From: Escherichia phage vB_EcoS_FFH_1
Sequence record: KJ190157
DNA: 64,000 nucleotides
Direction: 5' to 3' (one strand)
A program made the position numbers and the translations under genes. This document shows, in pieces, positions 1 to 36,262 of this stretch. Within the stretch, counting starts at the first letter, position 1; each line of letters begins with the position of its first letter. The notes under the pieces are model-generated. The model saw only the letters and a list, made by a program, of their open reading frames with translations, was not told the origin of the DNA and did not search any database.

Positions 1-148
1 TAGGGATTGTACTGTATATGTAGAAATTCTTTATATTACTCTCTCCGCCACAGAAATTTTTAGCAAATTCATACTCTTTATTAATGGTTGAGTCAAGTTT
101 AAAACAACCAGTAAGTAGGAATACAGATAGCAATAAAACTTTCTTCAT
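1..148 (-). CDS. Lipoprotein, N-terminal 49 codons only (runs off window edge)
   Basis: Reverse strand reads ATG at 148-146 then MKKVLLLSVFLLTGC..., a signal peptide with LTGC lipobox; no stop before position 1; a conserved early promoter sits just upstream at 181-209. Confidence 0.45.
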   Translation of the reverse strand, partial: MKKVLLLSVFLLTGCFKLDSTINKEYEFAKNFCGGESNIKNFYIYSTIP

Positions 149-2855: not shown

Positions 2856-3062
2856 CTAAACTCCAGATTCTTCAGCTAAGTCTAGGCTAATAAGAGTTAT
2901 AGCCATAATTGCTGCACCGTGTTCTTTTTCTCCGGTGTTTTTAGCAGAGTCTATAATAGTCTTAATCTGTTCGTAATAGCCTTTTACTTCTTGTTCAATA
3001 CCTGCCTCGGCTATCATGCCTTTAGTCATGATTCGTTGCATAGTAATTTCACGGTTAGCCAT
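2856..3062 (-). CDS. Hypothetical protein (68 aa)
   Basis: ORF. Confidence 0.4.
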   Translation of the reverse strand: MANREITMQRIMTKGMIAEAGIEQEVKGYYEQIKTIIDSAKNTGEKEHGAAIMAITLISLDLAEESGV

Positions 3063-3222
3063 GATGTTTCTCCAGCTTCATTTTTAATAGTTTACAAATG
3101 AAATCAACGTCTTCATCTGTACCTAGATCTCTATCTTCAAGAGTTGCCTTGAAGTTTTTAGTCAATTCCATGAGGATAACTTCTCTAGAACGACGTGTTG
3201 GCGGAGGTGGATGTCTATACAT
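3055..3222 (-). CDS. Hypothetical small protein (55 aa, MYRHPPPPTRR...), below the ORF-track cutoff
   Basis: Hand translation; ATG at 3222-3220 preceded by AAGGAAATAAG; its stop overlaps the start of the next gene. Confidence 0.3.
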   Translation of the reverse strand: MYRHPPPPTRRSREVILMELTKNFKATLEDRDLGTDEDVDFICKLLKMKLEKHHG

Positions 3223-3723: not shown

Positions 3724-4245
3724 TTAGAAATTTAGCTTCATAGCAAGAAAATTTTTCAAGTTTTCGGTAGACATCTCATCCACATCTACGGGAGAAACAA
3801 AGCCGTTTAATTTTCTAGCAAATTTTTCACCCGCAGGATCATTGTCCCCAACAGCTACCAATTTAAAAGGTAGTAATTTCAGTTGCTTTAATAACGCTTT
3901 TCCTGGAGAAGAACCCAACATTGCTAGGGCTGGATAACCAGCATTATGTAACGCAACTGCCTTAAATACAGATTCAGCAATCAATACTACTTTTTCATCT
4001 CCATTGAGAGTTTCTAGTCCCCATACACACTGGGTAGTAGAATAAGTAAAGTATTTAGCTTCAAAGGGGCACTTACCATGACCTTTTGGAGCAGAAGGAT
4101 TATAAGTTTGATAGCCCCTCAACATCCCGGAGAAGTCATACAACGGGACTGTTAGCCATCCTTCCGGACTTAACCAGCAATGATATTTATCTGTATCAAA
4201 TCCTCTAGATAAGAGGTGCTGTGTTAGCTCATCAACATTCATATT
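3724..4245 (-). CDS. Toprim-domain protein (DnaG-type fold), about 173 aa
   Basis: Conserved glutamate in LIAESVF and the acidic motif VGDNDPAGE; start taken at the internal ATG (4245) with RBS GAAAGAGGAA, because the longer ORF would overlap the promoter at 4273-4301. Confidence 0.55.
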   Translation of the reverse strand, partial: NMNVDELTQHLLSRGFDTDKYHCWLSPEGWLTVPLYDFSGMLRGYQTYNPSAPKGHGKCPFEAKYFTYSTTQCVWGLETLNGDEKVVLIAESVFKAVALHNAGYPALAMLGSSPGKALLKQLKLLPFKLVAVGDNDPAGEKFARKLNGFVSPVDVDEMSTENLKNFLAMKLNF

Positions 4246-29751: not shown

Positions 29752-30456
29752 ATGGCTGGTTCTCGCAGAAAGAAACATATCCATGAAATCCCGGATGAAG
29801 TCTTTAAAAAAGTTATAGAGCATCTGGAGAACGGTGGTACTAAGAAAGCAGCATGTGAAATGCTTGGCGTATCATCCAACCCAACTATGGAAAGGATGAT
29901 AGAAGAGTGGCAAGATCGCCAAATTCAAGTTGCCGAGATGAAGAAAAAGAAACGTGGCACACTCATTGAAGGCATTGAGTTGGCCAACGTTATTGAACAG
30001 TATCTATCTGGCGATTCTTTTGAAGAGATTGCCGATCGTAATTACCGCTCTGTAGCAATGGTTAAATCTGTTCTGGAACGCTATGGTGCTCTGCTTCGTT
30101 TGAACGATATTGTAGATCCATTGAATCCACCAATTATTCCTGATGATGCTGTAGCAGAAGAATTTGAGGTAGGTGAGCTTGTTTGGGTTCCTGGATACCA
30201 GTGTATCGGTGAAATCAAAAAAGCAATGGATACCCCTGTTGGTTGTTACCGTGTATGGCTTCTATCAGAAGGCAAACAACAGAACGTTCATTATATGAAT
30301 TATGAGTTGGCTTCTGTTAAACATCTGGAAAAGCTAGGGGTTGATGTAAAATCTCTAGGGTATAAGTGGACTCGTGAAGAAGTTATTACGTTGATTAACG
30401 AAGCTGTTAAGGCTGCCTTGAAACTTGATAAAGAAAAAGGAAAACGCCGTGAGTAG
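29752..30456 (+). CDS. DNA-binding protein with N-terminal helix-turn-helix (possible T5 D5 analogue)
   Basis: HTH-like GGTKKAACEMLGVS; driven by the PN25-like promoter with RBS GAGGAG. Confidence 0.5.
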   Translation: MAGSRRKKHIHEIPDEVFKKVIEHLENGGTKKAACEMLGVSSNPTMERMIEEWQDRQIQVAEMKKKKRGTLIEGIELANVIEQYLSGDSFEEIADRNYRSVAMVKSVLERYGALLRLNDIVDPLNPPIIPDDAVAEEFEVGELVWVPGYQCIGEIKKAMDTPVGCYRVWLLSEGKQQNVHYMNYELASVKHLEKLGVDVKSLGYKWTREEVITLINEAVKAALKLDKEKGKRRE

Positions 30457-30717: not shown

Positions 30718-30746
30718 TTGCTTAATCCTACAATTCTTGATATAAT
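30718..30746 (+). promoter_or_regulatory. Conserved early promoter
   Basis: TTGCTT-17-TATAAT. Confidence 0.6.
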
Positions 30747-30803
30747 ATTCTCATAGTTTGAAAGAACTATTCTGTTTAATTCTTAATTAAGGAAATATAA
30801 AAT

Positions 30804-31597: not shown

Positions 31598-31906
31598 ATG
31601 AGCGAACAGGTAAATCAAAACTATGAAGGACACGTTGATGACCAGTCCATCATACTTTGGGAGAAGGAGGGGGAACAAGTAAGATTAACAGTATCGGAAT
31701 TTCGTGGGAATCTATACATGGGTATTCGTTACTGGCTTCTTGATATTAATGATGAATGGTTTCCAACGAAATCTGGCTTCTCTTTTCCTTACACCCTAGA
31801 AACAACATCACAGCTTTTCTACGCGTTTACACAGATTCTTAGTGAATCTGAGGTTTTACATGAGGTACAGAAACGAGCTGAAGAACTCAAAGCCAAGAAT
31901 GCCTAG
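31598..31906 (+). CDS. Hypothetical protein (102 aa)
   Basis: ORF; terminator hairpin spans its stop codon. Confidence 0.45.
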   Translation: MSEQVNQNYEGHVDDQSIILWEKEGEQVRLTVSEFRGNLYMGIRYWLLDINDEWFPTKSGFSFPYTLETTSQLFYAFTQILSESEVLHEVQKRAEELKAKNA

Positions 31907-31933
31907 TTCTTGGCTTTTTCTTTATAAATGTAT

Positions 31934-31962
31934 TTGCTTTCAACTCAGTTTTGTTATATAAT
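31934..31962 (+). promoter_or_regulatory. Conserved early promoter upstream of the ligase N-terminal ORF
   Basis: TTGCTT-17-TATAAT. Confidence 0.6.
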
Positions 31963-31993
31963 ATTTATATAAATTGATGAGAGATACAAATAA

Positions 31994-32965
31994 ATGACTA
32001 ATGTAAAAAACTTTATTAAACGTTGCCAAGAAGCGTACTACCAGGGAATGTCTTTAATCTCTGACGAAGAATATGATCGTCTGATTAAAAGATTTCCGTT
32101 AGAAGAAGAGATCGGTCCTAAGGGCGATATTCCACATCTGTATCGTATGTATTCTTTACAGAAAGTTTATTATAATCGTGGAGATAAACCTCCGTTTAAC
32201 CCATTAGGTCAGGTAGAAACTGATAAGTTAGATGGTTGTGCGATTTCTCTGCTATATATTAATGGCGAATTTGTTCAAGCACTAACTCGTGGTAATGGTA
32301 TTCTAGGGAATGATGTCACAAGCAACGTAAGATTGCTGAACATTCCTAAAAAGATTTCCCAAAAAGTACCTACTCAAATCACTGGTGAAGTTCTAATTAC
32401 AAAAGAAGTAGAAAATAAACGTAACTTTGCCTCTGGTGCTATTAACCTCAAAGATAGTGATGATTTCGTACAACGTATCGGGGAAGGTGGTTTAATCTTT
32501 GTTGCATATGGTATCCAGTGTTCTGCTGAATCTGTAGGTATTACAGAAGCATATTTAAAAGATATGCTTTGGCTAGAGAATGAGAACTTCTTAACAGTTG
32601 TTAATGTACGTTCCTTCTTTAAATGGATTCCGACGGACGGTAAAGTTGTTCGTATTAATGACAACAACAAATTCTTCCGCGAAGGCTGGACTAATAAATT
32701 CCCTCGCGGGGCGTTCGCTATTAAAGAGGATGAAGAAGGCGAGATTACAACTCTTACTAAAGTTGAATGGCAGGTAGGGGCTTCTGGTAAAGTAACTCCA
32801 GTTGGTTATTTCGAACCGGTAATTATTGATGATGCTACAATTGTTAAAGCGACTCTTAATAACGTTGATTATATTAACTCTCTCTATCTAGAGATCGGTT
32901 GCCAGATTCGAGTGATTCGTGCTGGTGGTGTAATCCCGTGTATAGTAGAGCGAGTATACGATTAA
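31994..32965 (+). CDS. NAD-dependent DNA ligase, N-terminal part (Ia and adenylation domains plus OB)
   Basis: ISDEEYDRL (Ia domain) and the KxDG adenylation motif TDKLDGCA. Confidence 0.75.
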   Translation: MTNVKNFIKRCQEAYYQGMSLISDEEYDRLIKRFPLEEEIGPKGDIPHLYRMYSLQKVYYNRGDKPPFNPLGQVETDKLDGCAISLLYINGEFVQALTRGNGILGNDVTSNVRLLNIPKKISQKVPTQITGEVLITKEVENKRNFASGAINLKDSDDFVQRIGEGGLIFVAYGIQCSAESVGITEAYLKDMLWLENENFLTVVNVRSFFKWIPTDGKVVRINDNNKFFREGWTNKFPRGAFAIKEDEEGEITTLTKVEWQVGASGKVTPVGYFEPVIIDDATIVKATLNNVDYINSLYLEIGCQIRVIRAGGVIPCIVERVYD

Positions 32966-33015
32966 TACATAACCCTTTGCTACCCATCTACCATATCGGA
33001 ATTATAAAGTGGTTA

Positions 33016-33044
33016 TTGACATTTTCGCCGCTTAGGTATATACT
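33016..33044 (+). promoter_or_regulatory. Sigma70-type promoter TTGACA-17-TATACT inside the ligase split
   Basis: Shares the 13-mer ttgacattttcgc with the promoter at 4418. Confidence 0.45.
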
Positions 33045-33108
33045 ATTATCATTCAGTTGAGGGATAGAAAGTTATGGCGAGGGTAAGCAAAGTTAGTTAA
33101 AATTGTAG

Positions 33109-33137
33109 TTGCTAAATGCTTAAATACTTGCTATAAT
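33109..33137 (+). promoter_or_regulatory. Conserved early promoter upstream of the ligase C-terminal ORF
   Basis: TTGCTA-17-TATAAT. Confidence 0.6.
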
Positions 33138-33164
33138 ATTTATATAAATTGATAAGGAAGAAAT

Positions 33165-33947
33165 TTGATGAAAATCGAAATTCCAACACAATGTCCCTCT
33201 TGTGGTTCTAAGCTAGATCTTGTCAACGGACAATTATTCTGTCGTAATAAGTCCAACTGTCCAGCGCAATCAAGCAAGTTAATTGAGAACTTCTGTTCAA
33301 AAATGAAGTTAAAGGGCTTTGGCCCAAAAACTATTGAGAAGCTGGAGCTGACGAAGATTTCAGAACTATTTTACCTAACCGAAGAAGATTTGGTTAGAGT
33401 CGTGGGTAGCAAGGTTGCCGCTAAGTTAATTAGCGAATTAAATACTAAAGTTCGCGGAGACATTGACTTTGGTTCAGTTCTCGGTTCTTTAGGAATCCCT
33501 CTAATTGGAGAGGTTGCAGCAAAGAAATTATCCCAAAATTGCACTAGCTTCCACGATGTGAAGGCTGACGGCAAGGCTGGAGAAAATTACAAAGCCTGGC
33601 TAAATTCCCCACAAGGCAAGGATGTTATTGAACTACCGTGGAAATTTTCAACTGGTATTAAGGGCACTAAAGCTGACGTCATCATTACAGATGAATTAGT
33701 TGCCCAGCCAAATGGAATCGCGGTATGTATTACCGGATCTTTGCAAGATTTTGCAAATCGAACGGATGCAACAAACTATTTAGAAGGTCTAGGGTATACG
33801 GTTAAGAAATCCGTTACTAAAGACGTCAAATACCTAATCTGTGAGGATGAATCAAAACGTTCTTCCTCATCTTATAAGAAAGCCGAAACGAATGGGATAG
33901 AAATCCTGTCGATTAAAGAACTATTGGAGAAAAATAATAATGTCTAA
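33165..33947 (+). CDS. NAD-dependent DNA ligase, C-terminal part (Zn-finger, HhH, BRCT-like)
   Basis: Cys4 zinc finger CPSCGS...CRNKSNCPAQ, HhH-like FGPKTIEKL, C-terminal BRCT-like region. Confidence 0.7.
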   Translation: MMKIEIPTQCPSCGSKLDLVNGQLFCRNKSNCPAQSSKLIENFCSKMKLKGFGPKTIEKLELTKISELFYLTEEDLVRVVGSKVAAKLISELNTKVRGDIDFGSVLGSLGIPLIGEVAAKKLSQNCTSFHDVKADGKAGENYKAWLNSPQGKDVIELPWKFSTGIKGTKADVIITDELVAQPNGIAVCITGSLQDFANRTDATNYLEGLGYTVKKSVTKDVKYLICEDESKRSSSSYKKAETNGIEILSIKELLEKNNNV

Positions 33948-34707
33948 ACTGAACTGGAACGTAGAAGGTGTAACCGAGTCTCTGAAAGCAAAAGCCACTG
34001 CTCTGGGTGTTGCTGTAATCTCTCAAGAACAAGTAGCTGCTATCGCTGCTGAACTGGCTGCTGAAACTGGTAAAGACGTTACAGCTCGCTCTGTTGGCTC
34101 TAAACTGCGTAAAGAAGGTTTTGAAGTACAGAAAGCTAACGAAGTACAGAAATCCCCGTGGACTCCTGAGCAGGAAGCTGAACTGGTTGATTTCCTGAAC
34201 GCTCATGCTGGTCAGTATACCTATGCTGAAATCGCTGCTGCTGTAGCTGGTGGTCAGTTCGGTGCTAAACAGGTACAGGGTAAGATCCTGAGTCTGGAAA
34301 TGACCGCTTCTGTTAAACCAACTGAAAAAGCTGCTGCTGTTCGTTCCTTCACTCCTGATGAAGAAACTGATTTTGTTAATCAGGTTGTTGCTGGTGCTAC
34401 TATTGAAGCTATCGCTGCTCACTTCGGTCGTAATATCAAGCAGATCCGTGGTAAAGCTCTGAGCCTGCTTCGTGAAGGTCGTATCGCTGCTATGCCGGTA
34501 CAGGAAACCTCAAGTGCTAAAACTCGTGAAGATCTGTTAGAAGGTCTGGATCTGGCTAACATGACTGTTGCTGAGATCGCTGAGAAAACTGGTAAATCTG
34601 AGCGCGGTGTTAAATCTATGCTGTCTCGTCGTGGTCTGGTTGCTAAGGACTATGATGGTGCTGCTAAGCGTGCTAAACTGGATGCAAAAGCTGCGGCTGC
34701 TGAATAA
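33940..34707 (+). CDS. Protein with three tandem helix-turn-helix-like repeats and host-like codon usage
   Basis: Repeats TYAEIAAAVAG...LSLEM, TIEAIAAHFGRN...LSLLREG, TVAEIAEKTGKS...LSRRGL; strong GCT/CTG/GGT codon bias. Confidence 0.5.
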   Translation: MSKLNWNVEGVTESLKAKATALGVAVISQEQVAAIAAELAAETGKDVTARSVGSKLRKEGFEVQKANEVQKSPWTPEQEAELVDFLNAHAGQYTYAEIAAAVAGGQFGAKQVQGKILSLEMTASVKPTEKAAAVRSFTPDEETDFVNQVVAGATIEAIAAHFGRNIKQIRGKALSLLREGRIAAMPVQETSSAKTREDLLEGLDLANMTVAEIAEKTGKSERGVKSMLSRRGLVAKDYDGAAKRAKLDAKAAAAE

Positions 34708-34738
34708 TCTGGTAAATTAAACCTAAGGGGAGGGGGCT

Positions 34739-36262
34739 ATGCTCCTTCCCCTTTTTGCATTTAGAAGGCACGAAAGCGTGCAAAGGAGAATGACCTTGTT
34801 TAACGTGCAAGCTGTAGTGTTGAAGATGCTTCTAGCTTCCGAACAGAAGCAGATAGCATTGGAAACATTCTCAAAACTGCATAAAGATCATTTTAATGAC
34901 GCTTTCTCCTCAATTTACCAAGCCGTCCAGAATTATTATAAAAAATATAACACAATGCCGTCCATTGACGCACTGATGCTTGAGGCTAATAGGAACGCCC
35001 GCCTTTCTCAAGCTCTAGTCGTTTTAGCTAACACTCAAATTCCAGAAGTTAGCATGGAACAGGCACTTGAAGTCCTAGAGGCCGAGTATACACAGGATTT
35101 ATTCCTGAAGCTTCTAGAAACAGACGTGCTTCAAGATTTAACAATGCTGGATCAGGGAGAAATTCTTAACCGAGTTGCCTCCCTTCACTTAAAATTAGAA
35201 GAGAAAGTAACGAATACTGGAAAAGTATTCAACGCAGATAACATGCGTATTTTCCAGAGAGAAGAAGATACCAAACTGAACTTAATCGCTCTTGGTATTT
35301 GTAATGAGTTCGACGCTCAAATTGGTTTAGCTCGCACAGAAACGTTACTGCTTGGTGGTTGGCGTGGTACTGGTAAATCCATTATCTGTTCAAACATACA
35401 GGTTCAGCAATATTTGAATGGAGATATTGCTCCATACTTCTCAATTGAGATGAAAGAACATGAAGTATTTAGACGTAATCTAGCCATGTTAGCTGGTGTA
35501 TCCGCACTAGCAATGCGTAATAATACTCTAGAAGGTGCAGCTCTGTTGAGATTAGCCAGAACTAGAGCTAGGATGTTTAACGGTGGTGAAGAGCTTTTCG
35601 ATAACTTCGTTAAACAGTACACAATGGCTAAGATGAGTGATTTCTACGATATGGAGAGTAAGCTAATAGAAGGATATGAGCTACATACTCCTATGATTAT
35701 TGTTTATGATCCTGAGCTGTCTATTACAACAGTTGACGTAGAATTAAATAAATTAGTTGCTAGATATGGAGATAAAGTTACAGTAGCTTTACTGGACTAT
35801 ATTAACCAAACCCGACTTCCAGACTCTAAAACCATTGATATGTATGACTGGAAAGAACAGATGGTTGTTAGCTCGTCTTTCAAATCTATCTGCCAGAAAC
35901 ATAACGTGGCTGGTGTAGCTCCTTACCAGATCGATCAAGATGGTAGAACACGTATGTCAAAGGGGATTCTTGATTCCGCAGACATGGCTGCTAATCTTAA
36001 TGCTGCAAAAGCTGATAATGGTCAAGGTGCTATTATGTTTGACTTCGTTAAGACTCGTTCTTCTGATAGCGTGAAGTTTATGCCTAAGATGAACTGGGAA
36101 ACTCTGCGAATGGATAATACAACTAACCTAGCAATGGAAGATATATCTCAAATGGAAGCTGAGTTCGTTATCCCTATTGAGAAGGATAAGCCGGCTCAAC
36201 CTAAACGTGCTAAGAAAGACAAAACTGAAAATTCAACAGGTGAACAGGCCAGCGATATATGA
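34739..36262 (+). CDS. DnaB-like replicative helicase (RecA-fold ATPase); start codon uncertain
   Basis: Walker A-like LLLGGWRGTGKS; sits directly upstream of primase; possible TTG start near 34797. Confidence 0.55.
   Translation: MLLPLFAFRRHESVQRRMTLFNVQAVVLKMLLASEQKQIALETFSKLHKDHFNDAFSSIYQAVQNYYKKYNTMPSIDALMLEANRNARLSQALVVLANTQIPEVSMEQALEVLEAEYTQDLFLKLLETDVLQDLTMLDQGEILNRVASLHLKLEEKVTNTGKVFNADNMRIFQREEDTKLNLIALGICNEFDAQIGLARTETLLLGGWRGTGKSIICSNIQVQQYLNGDIAPYFSIEMKEHEVFRRNLAMLAGVSALAMRNNTLEGAALLRLARTRARMFNGGEELFDNFVKQYTMAKMSDFYDMESKLIEGYELHTPMIIVYDPELSITTVDVELNKLVARYGDKVTVALLDYINQTRLPDSKTIDMYDWKEQMVVSSSFKSICQKHNVAGVAPYQIDQDGRTRMSKGILDSADMAANLNAAKADNGQGAIMFDFVKTRSSDSVKFMPKMNWETLRMDNTTNLAMEDISQMEAEFVIPIEKDKPAQPKRAKKDKTENSTGEQASDI

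Follow-up and report, generated by a model that had tools for sequence, protein, structure and literature searches.

The ligase locus and its source phage

The locus lies in a window of 64,000 nucleotides (the whole stretch of DNA analysed here), where two ligase genes, ligA and ligB, are followed by the D5 gene. A preliminary description had reported a ligase encoded as two ORFs about 200 bp apart with two promoters between them, and ORF calls, Pfam domains, our promoter scan and the phage T5 record all agree with this arrangement. The coordinates given then for ligA (31994-32965, + strand) stood, whereas the start of ligB had to be moved. As called, the second ORF spans 33165-33947 (+ strand) and encodes 260 aa from a TTG, but relatives and the PDB construct start at the ATG at 33168, one codon after the TTG. 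With this ATG as the start of ligB, the gap between the genes spans 32966-33167 (202 bp). The features of the locus are as follows.

31598-31906: PC4-like transcriptional regulator gene, upstream of ligA
31889-31917, + strand: intrinsic terminator, 12-bp stem followed by a T run; ends the upstream unit
31934-31981, + strand: ligA early promoter; -35 TTGCTT (31934-31939), 17-nt spacer, -10 TATAAT (31957-31962), initial transcribed module ATTTATATAAATTGATGAG
31994-32965, + strand: ligA, 323 aa; putative domain Ia, adenylation and OB domains; ORF call with Pfam, PDB and PHROG matches
32966-33015, + strand: variable 5' part of the gap, site of 0-3 unrelated genes in other genera
33016-33044, + strand: promoter P1 (P-K28b of T5); TTGACA-17-TATACT, score 11/12
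33051-33108, + strand: P1 leader, containing a TTGAGGGA box and a non-conserved 8-codon mini-ORF (33075-33101)
33109-33156, + strand: promoter P2 (P-K28a of T5); -35 TTGCTA, 17 nt, TG-extended -10 TATAAT (33132-33137), then the 25-nt module of the ligA promoter
33168-33947, + strand: ligB, 259 aa; Cys4 Zn finger, HhH and BRCT domains; RBS AAGGAAG at 33154-33160
33940-34707, + strand: D5 DNA-binding/transcription-regulator gene; phrog_323, D5-like, 1.9e-71, and T5 D5 annotation
34725-34753, + strand: intrinsic terminator, 13-bp stem (8 GC pairs) and downstream T run; ends the ligB-D5 unit

Database matches identify the window as DNA of a T5-like phage (Tequintavirus): Tequintavirus genomes share 98.7% identity with it, 446 phage records match, and Salmonella phage SPLA5b (98.7%) comes nearest over the full length. 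The region of the ligA-ligB gap is identical to that of phage T5 at 232 of 232 positions. A search of 5,426 E. coli genomes gave no match, and a prophage or host origin was rejected. The T5 reference record calls the genes ligA and ligB and lists the promoters of the gap as P-K28b and P-K28a, so that a split ligase with both promoters in its gap is an already known arrangement of T5-like phages. The split has been annotated ever since the T5 genome was published, and P-K28b and P-K28a are classical T5 promoters.

LigA and LigB as complementary parts of a probable NAD+-dependent ligase

The first ORF matched the Pfam families DNA_ligase_aden (2.2e-23, 83.5 bits, cut-off 27) and, over residues 252-321, DNA_ligase_OB (8.8e-21, 74 bits, cut-off 32.9), and in the OB region its residues 214-320 pair with residues 284-390 of E. 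coli LigA. The K78LDG motif aligns to K115LDG of E. coli, making K78 the counterpart of K115, and the TRGNG, GEV, DG and AIK motifs are likewise aligned or invariant. Among 11 representatives of the family, the invariant residues include K78-x-D-G, TRGxG, E132, D215-G216 and K244, as well as R220, a conservative replacement that stands where E. coli has K290. LigA has the N-terminal ~60 aa that would form domain Ia; within them, residues 20-34 (SLISDEEYDRLIKRF) pair with E. coli 28-42 at a local score that is not significant, and every family member examined keeps Y15, Y27 and D28. From membership of this family, together with the weakly aligned residues of domain Ia, we infer that NAD+ would be the cofactor. 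Over its full length LigA matched phrog_3359 (4.2e-175, residues 1-323 on profile positions 1-325), and it matched chain A of PDB entry 9hu3 (2.7e-104). It ends at the equivalent of about residue 393 of E. coli LigA.

The possibility, raised earlier, that the second ORF belongs to an unrelated family did not hold, as this ORF encodes the Zn finger/HhH/BRCT part of LigA. LigB residues 3-122 pair with E. coli LigA 402-529, and a further stretch aligns to 585-666. All four cysteines of the Zn finger (C9, C12, C25 and C31, aligned to E. coli 402-432) are invariant, as are KGFG and the TG of the BRCT domain. The BRCT domain was recognized by Pfam (9.6e-8, 32.6 bits, cut-off 21.3), while the HhH region gave weak Pfam matches, with HHH_2 scoring 24, just below the cut-off of 27. 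LigB also matched phrog_3498 (9.5e-137, residues 1-258 on profile positions 1-255) and chain B of 9hu3 (3.4e-81).

Aligned to a single LigA, as had been suggested, the two halves are colinear, and the break falls at the boundary between the OB and Zn-finger domains (E. coli LigA residues ~393|400). On a fused PHROG profile of 656 positions, LigA occupies positions 10-381 and LigB positions 388-654, placing the break at 381|388. The ligase of the window is not the single polypeptide of the LigA family: it is encoded by two ORFs, and the 202-bp gap carries stops in all frames. Instead the locus has the features of the T5 type, with a full-length subunit match for each ORF, the OB/Zn-finger break, and the order ligA, promoter block, ligB, D5.

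PDB 9hu3/9i5i holds a chain A named 'DNA ligase (NAD(+))' and a chain B named 'DNA ligase subunit B', the latter 100% identical to LigB of Providencia phage vB_PreS_PR1. The PR1 pair is orthologous to that of the window over the full length and with the same boundary, and because these orthologues were deposited as a two-chain entry, LigA and LigB of the window may be expected to associate in trans. In such an enzyme, LigA, whose NTase domain contains the adenylated lysine K78, would generate the enzyme-AMP intermediate from NAD+ and carry the nick-sealing chemistry, as in LigA enzymes generally. LigB would bind LigA non-covalently at the OB/Zn-finger junction and so restore a LigA-like enzyme, contributing the Zn finger, HhH and BRCT domains that in single-chain LigA complete the clamp around nicked DNA. 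Our literature search found no biochemical study of a split NAD+ ligase.

A conserved promoter block occupies the gap

The gap lies in an AT-rich region where promoter-like sites are no more frequent than chance (5 found against 7.4 expected in shuffled sequences); P1 and P2 are the best-scoring of them. Both coincide with the T5 features 'promoter P-K 28b' and 'P-K 28a', and their hexamers, which for P2 span 33109-33137 and score 10/12, are the columns that never vary when nine relatives are aligned, five genera outside Tequintavirus/Epseptimavirus being included among them. The P1 hexamers are present in Vibrio phages too. Compared with Sugarlandvirus, the gap is 79% identical, whereas four-fold degenerate sites are only ~41% identical. 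Judged from its sequence, the gap is a conserved regulatory region. Papers on PK28a or PK28b were sought in the literature, and the search returned nothing relevant.

A promoter feature also stands before ligA in the T5 record and is a predicted early promoter in the Bf23 record; its 25-nt module recurs before ligB. The early-promoter pattern TTGNNN-16..18-TATAATATT has seven occurrences in the window (four on the coding strand, three on the other), mostly with a TTGCTx -35 element, and the ligA promoter is one of them; this agrees with a published report of an ATATT element in T5 early promoters (PMC7472727). Downstream, an 8-nt overlap (ATGTCTAA) links the start of the D5 gene to the ligB stop, which indicates that ligB and D5 are co-transcribed and that translation of D5 is probably coupled to that of ligB. 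Under this arrangement, ligA would be read from its own early promoter, separately from ligB, and ligB and D5 would be read together from the tandem promoters PK28b and PK28a. The -10 element and the 25-nt module that PK28a has in common with the ligA promoter would help the two subunits to be expressed early and in step.

We also considered two further elements in the leader of P1. The segment 33051-33180 folds at -29.4 kcal/mol (z = -4.5); a conserved structured 5' leader was nevertheless unsupported, since RNAalifold on eight genomes of different genera returned 0 conserved pairs in the P1 leader and the minimum-free-energy folds differ from genus to genus. The mini-ORF starting at the ATG at 33075 (MARVSKVS*) was rejected for its lack of conservation in Sugarlandvirus, AAS21 and AhSzw-1.

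Both halves are conserved and under purifying selection

The split ligase was found in all 11 sampled genomes, which include nine named Demerecviridae genera at 44-99% aa identity, always with the same boundary and with no internal stops, even at 44% identity. The split arrangement is old, as its presence throughout this sample shows. Values of dN/dS were 0.03-0.16 for ligA and 0.10-0.125 for ligB; both halves are under strong purifying selection. The arrangement is a working, conserved one and not a broken gene.

In other genera, the stretch from ligA to the promoter block contains 0-3 genes, which are unrelated to one another. Our analysis adds to the known arrangement that the slot following ligA is a hot spot for insertion, that the tandem promoter block before ligB-D5 is kept in every Demerecviridae genome sampled, and that unsplit relatives with the same synteny exist.

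A two-subunit ligase and its alternatives

Taken together, our results indicate, with a probability of about 0.93, that the locus encodes the two-subunit NAD+-dependent DNA ligase that T5-like phages (Demerecviridae) typically carry, with separately transcribed subunits that most likely derive from an old fission. Among the explanations offered earlier was a two-subunit ligase, and this one is borne out by the colinear halves, the clean break at a domain boundary, the intact genes in 11/11 genomes, purifying selection and the two-chain structure from PR1. The other two, a decayed gene and an insertion-disrupted one, fared differently. That a nonsense or frameshift lesion split a single gene whose pieces are now drifting has one point in its favour, namely that a normally single-chain enzyme is seen as two ORFs, and we consider it highly improbable: internal stops are lacking, the boundary is identical in 11/11 representatives, dN/dS is 0.03-0.16 with invariant catalytic and Zn-binding residues, ligB comes with an RBS, a start codon and conserved promoters of its own, a dedicated PHROG family exists for each half, and the structure of the orthologues has been solved. 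Decay is rejected on the intact genes, the purifying selection and the invariant catalytic residues. Hardly any weight falls either on a mobile element (a group I intron, an intein, or a homing-endonuclease cassette or its remnant) that interrupts the gene, with RNA or protein splicing restoring the product. T5-like genomes are rich in HNH homing endonucleases, hegI and hegJ flank the region in T5, and the interval 3' of ligA takes foreign genes in other genera; these inserted genes, however, show no relationship to one another and are found 5' of the conserved promoter block, and the two separate chains of 9hu3/9i5i speak against splicing. Rfam gave no match at E<=1 across 31800-33300, and so no intron or structured RNA in the gap, which also contained no ORF of >=40 aa; Pfam found no intein or endonuclease domain in either half. 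Flanking inverted or direct repeats were absent from the gap apart from the shared promoter module, and the remnant of an excised element that had been thought worth seeking in the spacer was not there, the promoter module being the only repeat. Insertion is thus rejected as a recent event, the gap being a conserved regulatory region with no ORF, intron or inverted-repeat remnant.

An explanation of another kind holds that the halves act independently, LigA being a self-sufficient minimal NAD+ ligase and LigB a separate BRCT/HhH DNA-binding or scaffold protein for D5 or the replisome. Each of the two genes has promoters of its own, and it is with D5 rather than ligA that ligB shares an operon and a start/stop overlap. 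Moreover, up to three genes can part ligA from ligB, the place of ligA relative to a DprA-like gene varies by genus, and ligB and D5 stay together wherever D5 was annotated or tested (Lindwurm, Achelous, AhSzw-1, KpGranit, T5, and contigs L016 and L015). Against this, ligA and ligB co-occur in every complete Demerecviridae genome examined, and on the split contig L016 the gene upstream of ligB is a LigA C-terminus. In addition, the PR1 proteins were deposited as one two-chain structure, and the cut through the linker is clean, with no new domains gained by LigA or LigB. In LigA fragments from E. coli and Bacillus, the N-terminal part can adenylate itself, yet efficient nick joining needs the HhH domain, which argues against independent halves. 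We regard independent function as unlikely.

Origin and significance of the split

The most likely origin of the split is that a compact (~560 aa) phage LigA underwent fission at the linker joining its OB domain to its Zn finger. Compact fused phage NAD+ ligases of ~555-578 aa (phrog_3869) exist, for example P0032 on metagenomic contig L015, which comes from a T5-like phage. This unsplit 568-aa ligase is 36.6-36.7% identical to both halves of the window and combines the compact set of domains with the synteny of the window (PC4-like regulator, ligase, D5 homologue). One ORF encodes it, and a short linker (…IIPQVIGVEIKPLSRTVINLDINCPSC…) stands at the T5-type split point. Fused ~560-aa forms are scattered among >100 split-type LigB lineages, and neighbour-joining with Fitch parsimony gave at least 7 fission/fusion changes in 200/200 bootstraps, a count that is inflated by poor resolution at 30-45% identity and is only suggestive as a number of events. 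More tentatively, and with the odds somewhat against it, compact phage NAD+ ligases may have in this linker a labile point of fission and fusion that was crossed more than once, the split perhaps being held by the gap promoter block that drives ligB-D5. If that block does hold the split in place, the fission would serve the transcriptional wiring of D5, not ligase enzymology.

As a discovery the locus carries little weight, given the annotated split, the named promoters and the solved structure of an orthologous pair. The T5 ligase is nonetheless a tidy natural case of a multidomain nucleic-acid enzyme in two chains, cut at a domain boundary, with relevance to split-ligase engineering and to gene-fission theory; the conserved promoter block, the insertion slot and the unsplit relatives together make it a concrete system in which to ask why a fission persists.

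Comparison with known systems

Phage T5 itself has ligA and ligB (T5.116/T5.117; AAU05253/AAU05254) with genes, order and size as in the window and with common flanks, a PC4-like regulator upstream and D5 and the DnaB-like D6 downstream. The window represents a different isolate or lineage, its coding sequences diverging from T5 by a few percent. The annotated terminator of T5 sits upstream of the PC4-like regulator gene, while Lindwurm has one annotated at the position matching that of the window, but on the opposite strand. The PR1 subunits are ~56-57% identical to those of the window at the aa level; the PR1 gap contains a terminator and a promoter plus both conserved promoter blocks, and its terminator is annotated directly 3' of ligA, where the window has none.

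Finally, bacterial single-chain LigA (E. coli, PDB 2owo; T. filiformis, 1dgs) has the same domain order as the window, namely Ia (putative in the window), NTase, OB, Zn finger, HhH and BRCT, and in common with it KxDG, TRGxG, the motif III Glu, the motif IV Asp-Gly, the motif V Lys and the four Zn cysteines. Identity between them is low, with aligned stretches of 29-55 bits each, and LigA and LigB of the window total 582 aa against 671 aa in bacterial LigA, the NTase domain being shortened in the window. Where bacterial LigA has an OB/Zn-finger linker of ~6-8 residues, the window has a stop codon, the 202-bp gap and a start codon.

Two adjacent genes encode the ligase of a T5-like phage

The preliminary description had reported an NAD-dependent DNA ligase divided between two ORFs, and our ORF scan and Pfam searches agreed on both genes and their domains: ORF1 (ligA) matched the NAD-ligase adenylation domain (83.5 bits) and the OB domain (74 bits), and ORF2 (ligB) matched BRCT and, weakly, HhH. 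Only the ligB start shifts, to the ATG used in annotated relatives and in the PDB construct, and the gap is therefore 202 bp. The features are as follows.

31889-31917, terminator ahead of the ligA promoter
31994-32965, ORF1 (ligA), 323 aa
32966-33167, ligA-ligB gap, 202 bp
33016-33044, coding strand, promoter-like site P1 (PK28b), TTGACA-17-TATACT, 11/12 in the consensus scan
33109-33137, coding strand, promoter-like site P2 (PK28a), TTGCTA-17-TATAAT with upstream TG, 10/12 in the consensus scan
33154-33160, AAGGAAG preceding the ligB ATG
33165-33947, ORF2 (ligB) as listed, TTG start at 33165
33168, ATG start of ligB by relatives, giving 259 aa
34725-34753, next terminator after ligB-D5

Salmonella phage SPLA5b shares 98.7% identity with the locus region, which matches 446 phage records, and all seven close (megablast-level) relatives inspected belong to Tequintavirus or Epseptimavirus (Demerecviridae). 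Since the E. coli genomes searched with the region gave no match, we ruled out a prophage fragment. Some records labelled as Listeria or Campylobacter phages (e.g. OR848168.1, 'Listeria phage LM 4-14-1', 13.6 kb) hold T5-like sequence at 100% identity, which probably reflects mislabelling or contamination. In the T5 reference record NC_005859, ligA, ligB and the regulator gene D5 directly after ligB are T5.116, T5.117 and T5.118; a promoter feature lies ahead of ligA, and 'promoter P-K 28b' and 'promoter P-K 28a' lie within the gap. Because the T5 gap and its 15-nt flanks are identical to those of the window (232/232), P1 is PK28b and P2 is PK28a.

LigA and LigB as a probable two-subunit enzyme

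Both products proved colinear with single-chain LigA, and ORF2 does not belong to an unrelated family. On the solved E. coli LigA (2owo/4glx), ORF1 places K78LDG on K115LDG and residues 214-320 on 284-390, and ORF2 begins at residue 400-402 in the Zn finger, continuing through HhH to 529 and BRCT at 585-666. On the fused phage NAD ligase profile phrog_3869 (656 positions), the halves occupy 10-381 and 388-654, and the split costs just the short linker between OB fold and Zn finger. A separate full-length PHROG family exists for each half as well (ORF1, phrog_3359, 4e-175; ORF2, phrog_3498, 9.5e-137).

The preliminary description had left open whether this arrangement represents a two-subunit ligase or a gene that has decayed or been disrupted by an insertion. 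The best PDB matches of the two ORFs are different chains of one entry, 9hu3 (likewise 9i5i): ORF1 matches chain A, 'DNA ligase (NAD(+))' (339 aa, E 2.7e-104), and ORF2 matches chain B, 'DNA ligase subunit B' (248 aa, E 3.4e-81), which equals LigB of the T5-like Priunavirus vB_PreS_PR1, a Providencia phage, at 100% identity. Searching with the concatenated product (tblastn), we found the two-piece ligase in Tequintavirus, Epseptimavirus, Sugarlandvirus, Pantoea phage AAS21, Priunavirus, Thalassavirus and other Vibrio phages, and Shenzhenvirus, with identities as low as 44%; phage ligases further removed, at 25-28% identity, are single-piece. Decay is rejected, since both genes are intact in 11 representatives with the same termini (LigA ending …IVERVYD, LigB starting MKIEIPTxCPxCGS), dN/dS in unsaturated comparisons is 0.03-0.16 for ligA and 0.10-0.125 for ligB, and key residues are invariant (LigA K78, D80, G81, T98-R99-G100, G131-E132, D215-G216 and K244; LigB C9, C12, C25, C31, K49-G50-F51-G52 and T189-G190). 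Disruption by an insertion fares no better: the gap gave no Rfam match and contains no ORF of at least 40 aa, and the search for remnants of an excised element found a single repeat, the 25-nt promoter module common to the ligA promoter and P2. The two-subunit reading is strongly supported.

Some jumbo-phage ligases (PhiPA3, Phosso) matched the LigA-subunit part of the query only. E. coli LigA K290 is catalytically important; the aligned motif IV position, LigA R220 (about nt 32651-32653), is an invariant Arg across Demerecviridae, and this substitution may merit inspection in the 9hu3 structure.

Alongside the domains, colinearity, break point, conservation, purifying selection, conserved promoters, operon layout and two-chain solved orthologue described here, established LigA enzymology suggests that LigA would be adenylated at K78 by NAD+, that LigB would supply the Zn-finger/HhH/BRCT DNA clamp in trans, and that together they would seal nicks, those of Okazaki fragments and perhaps also the site-specific ones in T5 DNA.

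Conserved regulatory sequence in the gap

The promoter scan alone is weak evidence, because the promoter-like sites in this AT-rich stretch (5, versus 7.4 in shuffles) do not exceed expectation. P1 and P2, already proposed in the preliminary description, are credible through comparative and annotation evidence; PK28b and PK28a reportedly belong to the strong T5 promoters that the Bujard laboratory characterised in the 1980s. The gap sequence recurs at 95% identity or more in 430 records, and its identity to Sugarlandvirus is still 79% across 184 nt, compared with only ~41% at four-fold degenerate sites of the flanking genes. In an alignment of nine gaps, with five genera outside Tequintavirus and Epseptimavirus among them, all -35 and -10 positions of P1 and P2 fall among the invariant columns (TTGAC, TATA.T, TTGC, TTG.TATA.T), and Vibrio phages Achelous and D332 carry the same tandem block directly upstream of ligB. 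The gap is thus conserved regulatory sequence, not debris. Since ligB and the D5 start share 8 nt and the first terminator beyond them lies at 34725-34753, the tandem promoters would drive a ligB-D5 unit; ligA has a promoter of its own, located after the 31889-31917 terminator.

The RNA that would begin at P1 (window 33051-33180) has an unusually stable predicted fold of -29.4 kcal/mol (z = -4.5; 0/200 shuffles as stable), with pairing between the leader and the P2 promoter region; a consensus structure sought over eight genomes from different genera was not shared.

The 25-nt module (TATAATATTTATATAAATTGAT[G/A]AG) spans promoter and initial-transcribed sequence at ligA (31957-31981) and P2 (33132-33156), with 24/25 positions identical, and within it lies a perfect 12-nt palindrome, ATTTATATAAAT. 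Three further window sites, on the minus strand, carry looser copies (1692, 2780 and 9629; 0.01 expected by chance). The module belongs to a general class, TTGNNN-16..18-TATAATATT, with a -35 that is mostly TTGCTx, found at seven window sites (four on the coding strand, three on the other). Within this pattern lies ATATT, an element that all known T5 early promoters are reported to have (PMC7472727). The module with its palindrome could act as an operator or as a downstream promoter element in addition to that known motif.

Window 29752-30456 and 30718-30749 are the region of two well-known T5 promoters, P-N25, which precedes D2, and P-N26 (30718, TTGCTTAATCCTACAATTCTTGATATAATATT), placed by correspondence with the T5 locus (L017) at 3044-3118 and 4069-4143. 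The 'T5 promoter' of expression vectors derives from these.

Insertion slots flank ligA

Nothing lies between ligA and the promoter block in Tequintavirus, Sugarlandvirus, Shenzhenvirus or Priunavirus. TrudiRoth (Epseptimavirus; L012, ~1205-1390) has an unannotated ~60-aa ORF (MLEALEKLFWNGPTKVWDM…) in an extra 156 bp just after ligA, AAS21 has one gene, Achelous three, one of them DprA-like, and D332 one or two small ORFs, the second of which extends across the promoter block and is therefore probably spurious. Because these inserts are mutually unrelated between genera, and the DprA-like gene lies upstream of ligA in AAS21 but in the ligA-ligB interval in Achelous (30% identity, 5e-16), the interval is an ordinary insertion-tolerant intergenic slot. 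In Salmonella phage 1-23 the span is ~156 bp longer than typical.

A second slot lies between the ligA promoter and ligA (window equivalent 31962-31994), where relatives carry a small extra gene (L003, 1094-1366; L004, 1093-1281; L012, 43-246; L014, 259-459; L010, 326-601) that the window and T5 lack. These genes are of two unrelated types, ~62-67 aa (KPP2018, TrudiRoth, bobsandoy) and ~90 aa (HK6 and KpGranit, which share 41% identity).

Fused and split relatives

An exhaustive phmmer search of 1.84 billion cluster representatives with LigB gave 3,921 matches. Standalone proteins of 235-265 aa make up most of the top 150, which include 10 compact fused ligases (555-578 aa) with a LigB-like part from residue ~311-334; classical bacterial-length ligases (610-720 aa) are more distant. 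The fused ligase P0032 (568 aa), on metagenomic contig L015, sits between homologues of the PC4-like regulator (upstream) and of D5 (downstream), with a Phage_T5_A2-family gene close by, so that its synteny is that of the window but its ligase is unsplit. A near-consensus promoter-like site (L015 3355-3383, TTGACG-17-TATAAT, 11/12) lies within its LigB-equivalent part, ~300 nt after the OB/Zn junction, and might feed the D5 homologue. In the split relative P0068, 65 nt that hold one promoter, TTGACT-17-TATAAT, separate the LigA C-terminus from ligB, after which comes a D5 homologue. Fused forms are scattered among split ones in a neighbour-joining tree, and Fitch parsimony gave at least seven state changes in 200/200 bootstraps; since the tree is poorly resolved, repeated fission and fusion is suggestive only.

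Taken together, the split T5-type ligase is already known and annotated, and to this picture the fused syntenic relatives and the family-wide conserved tandem promoters before ligB-D5 are small additions.
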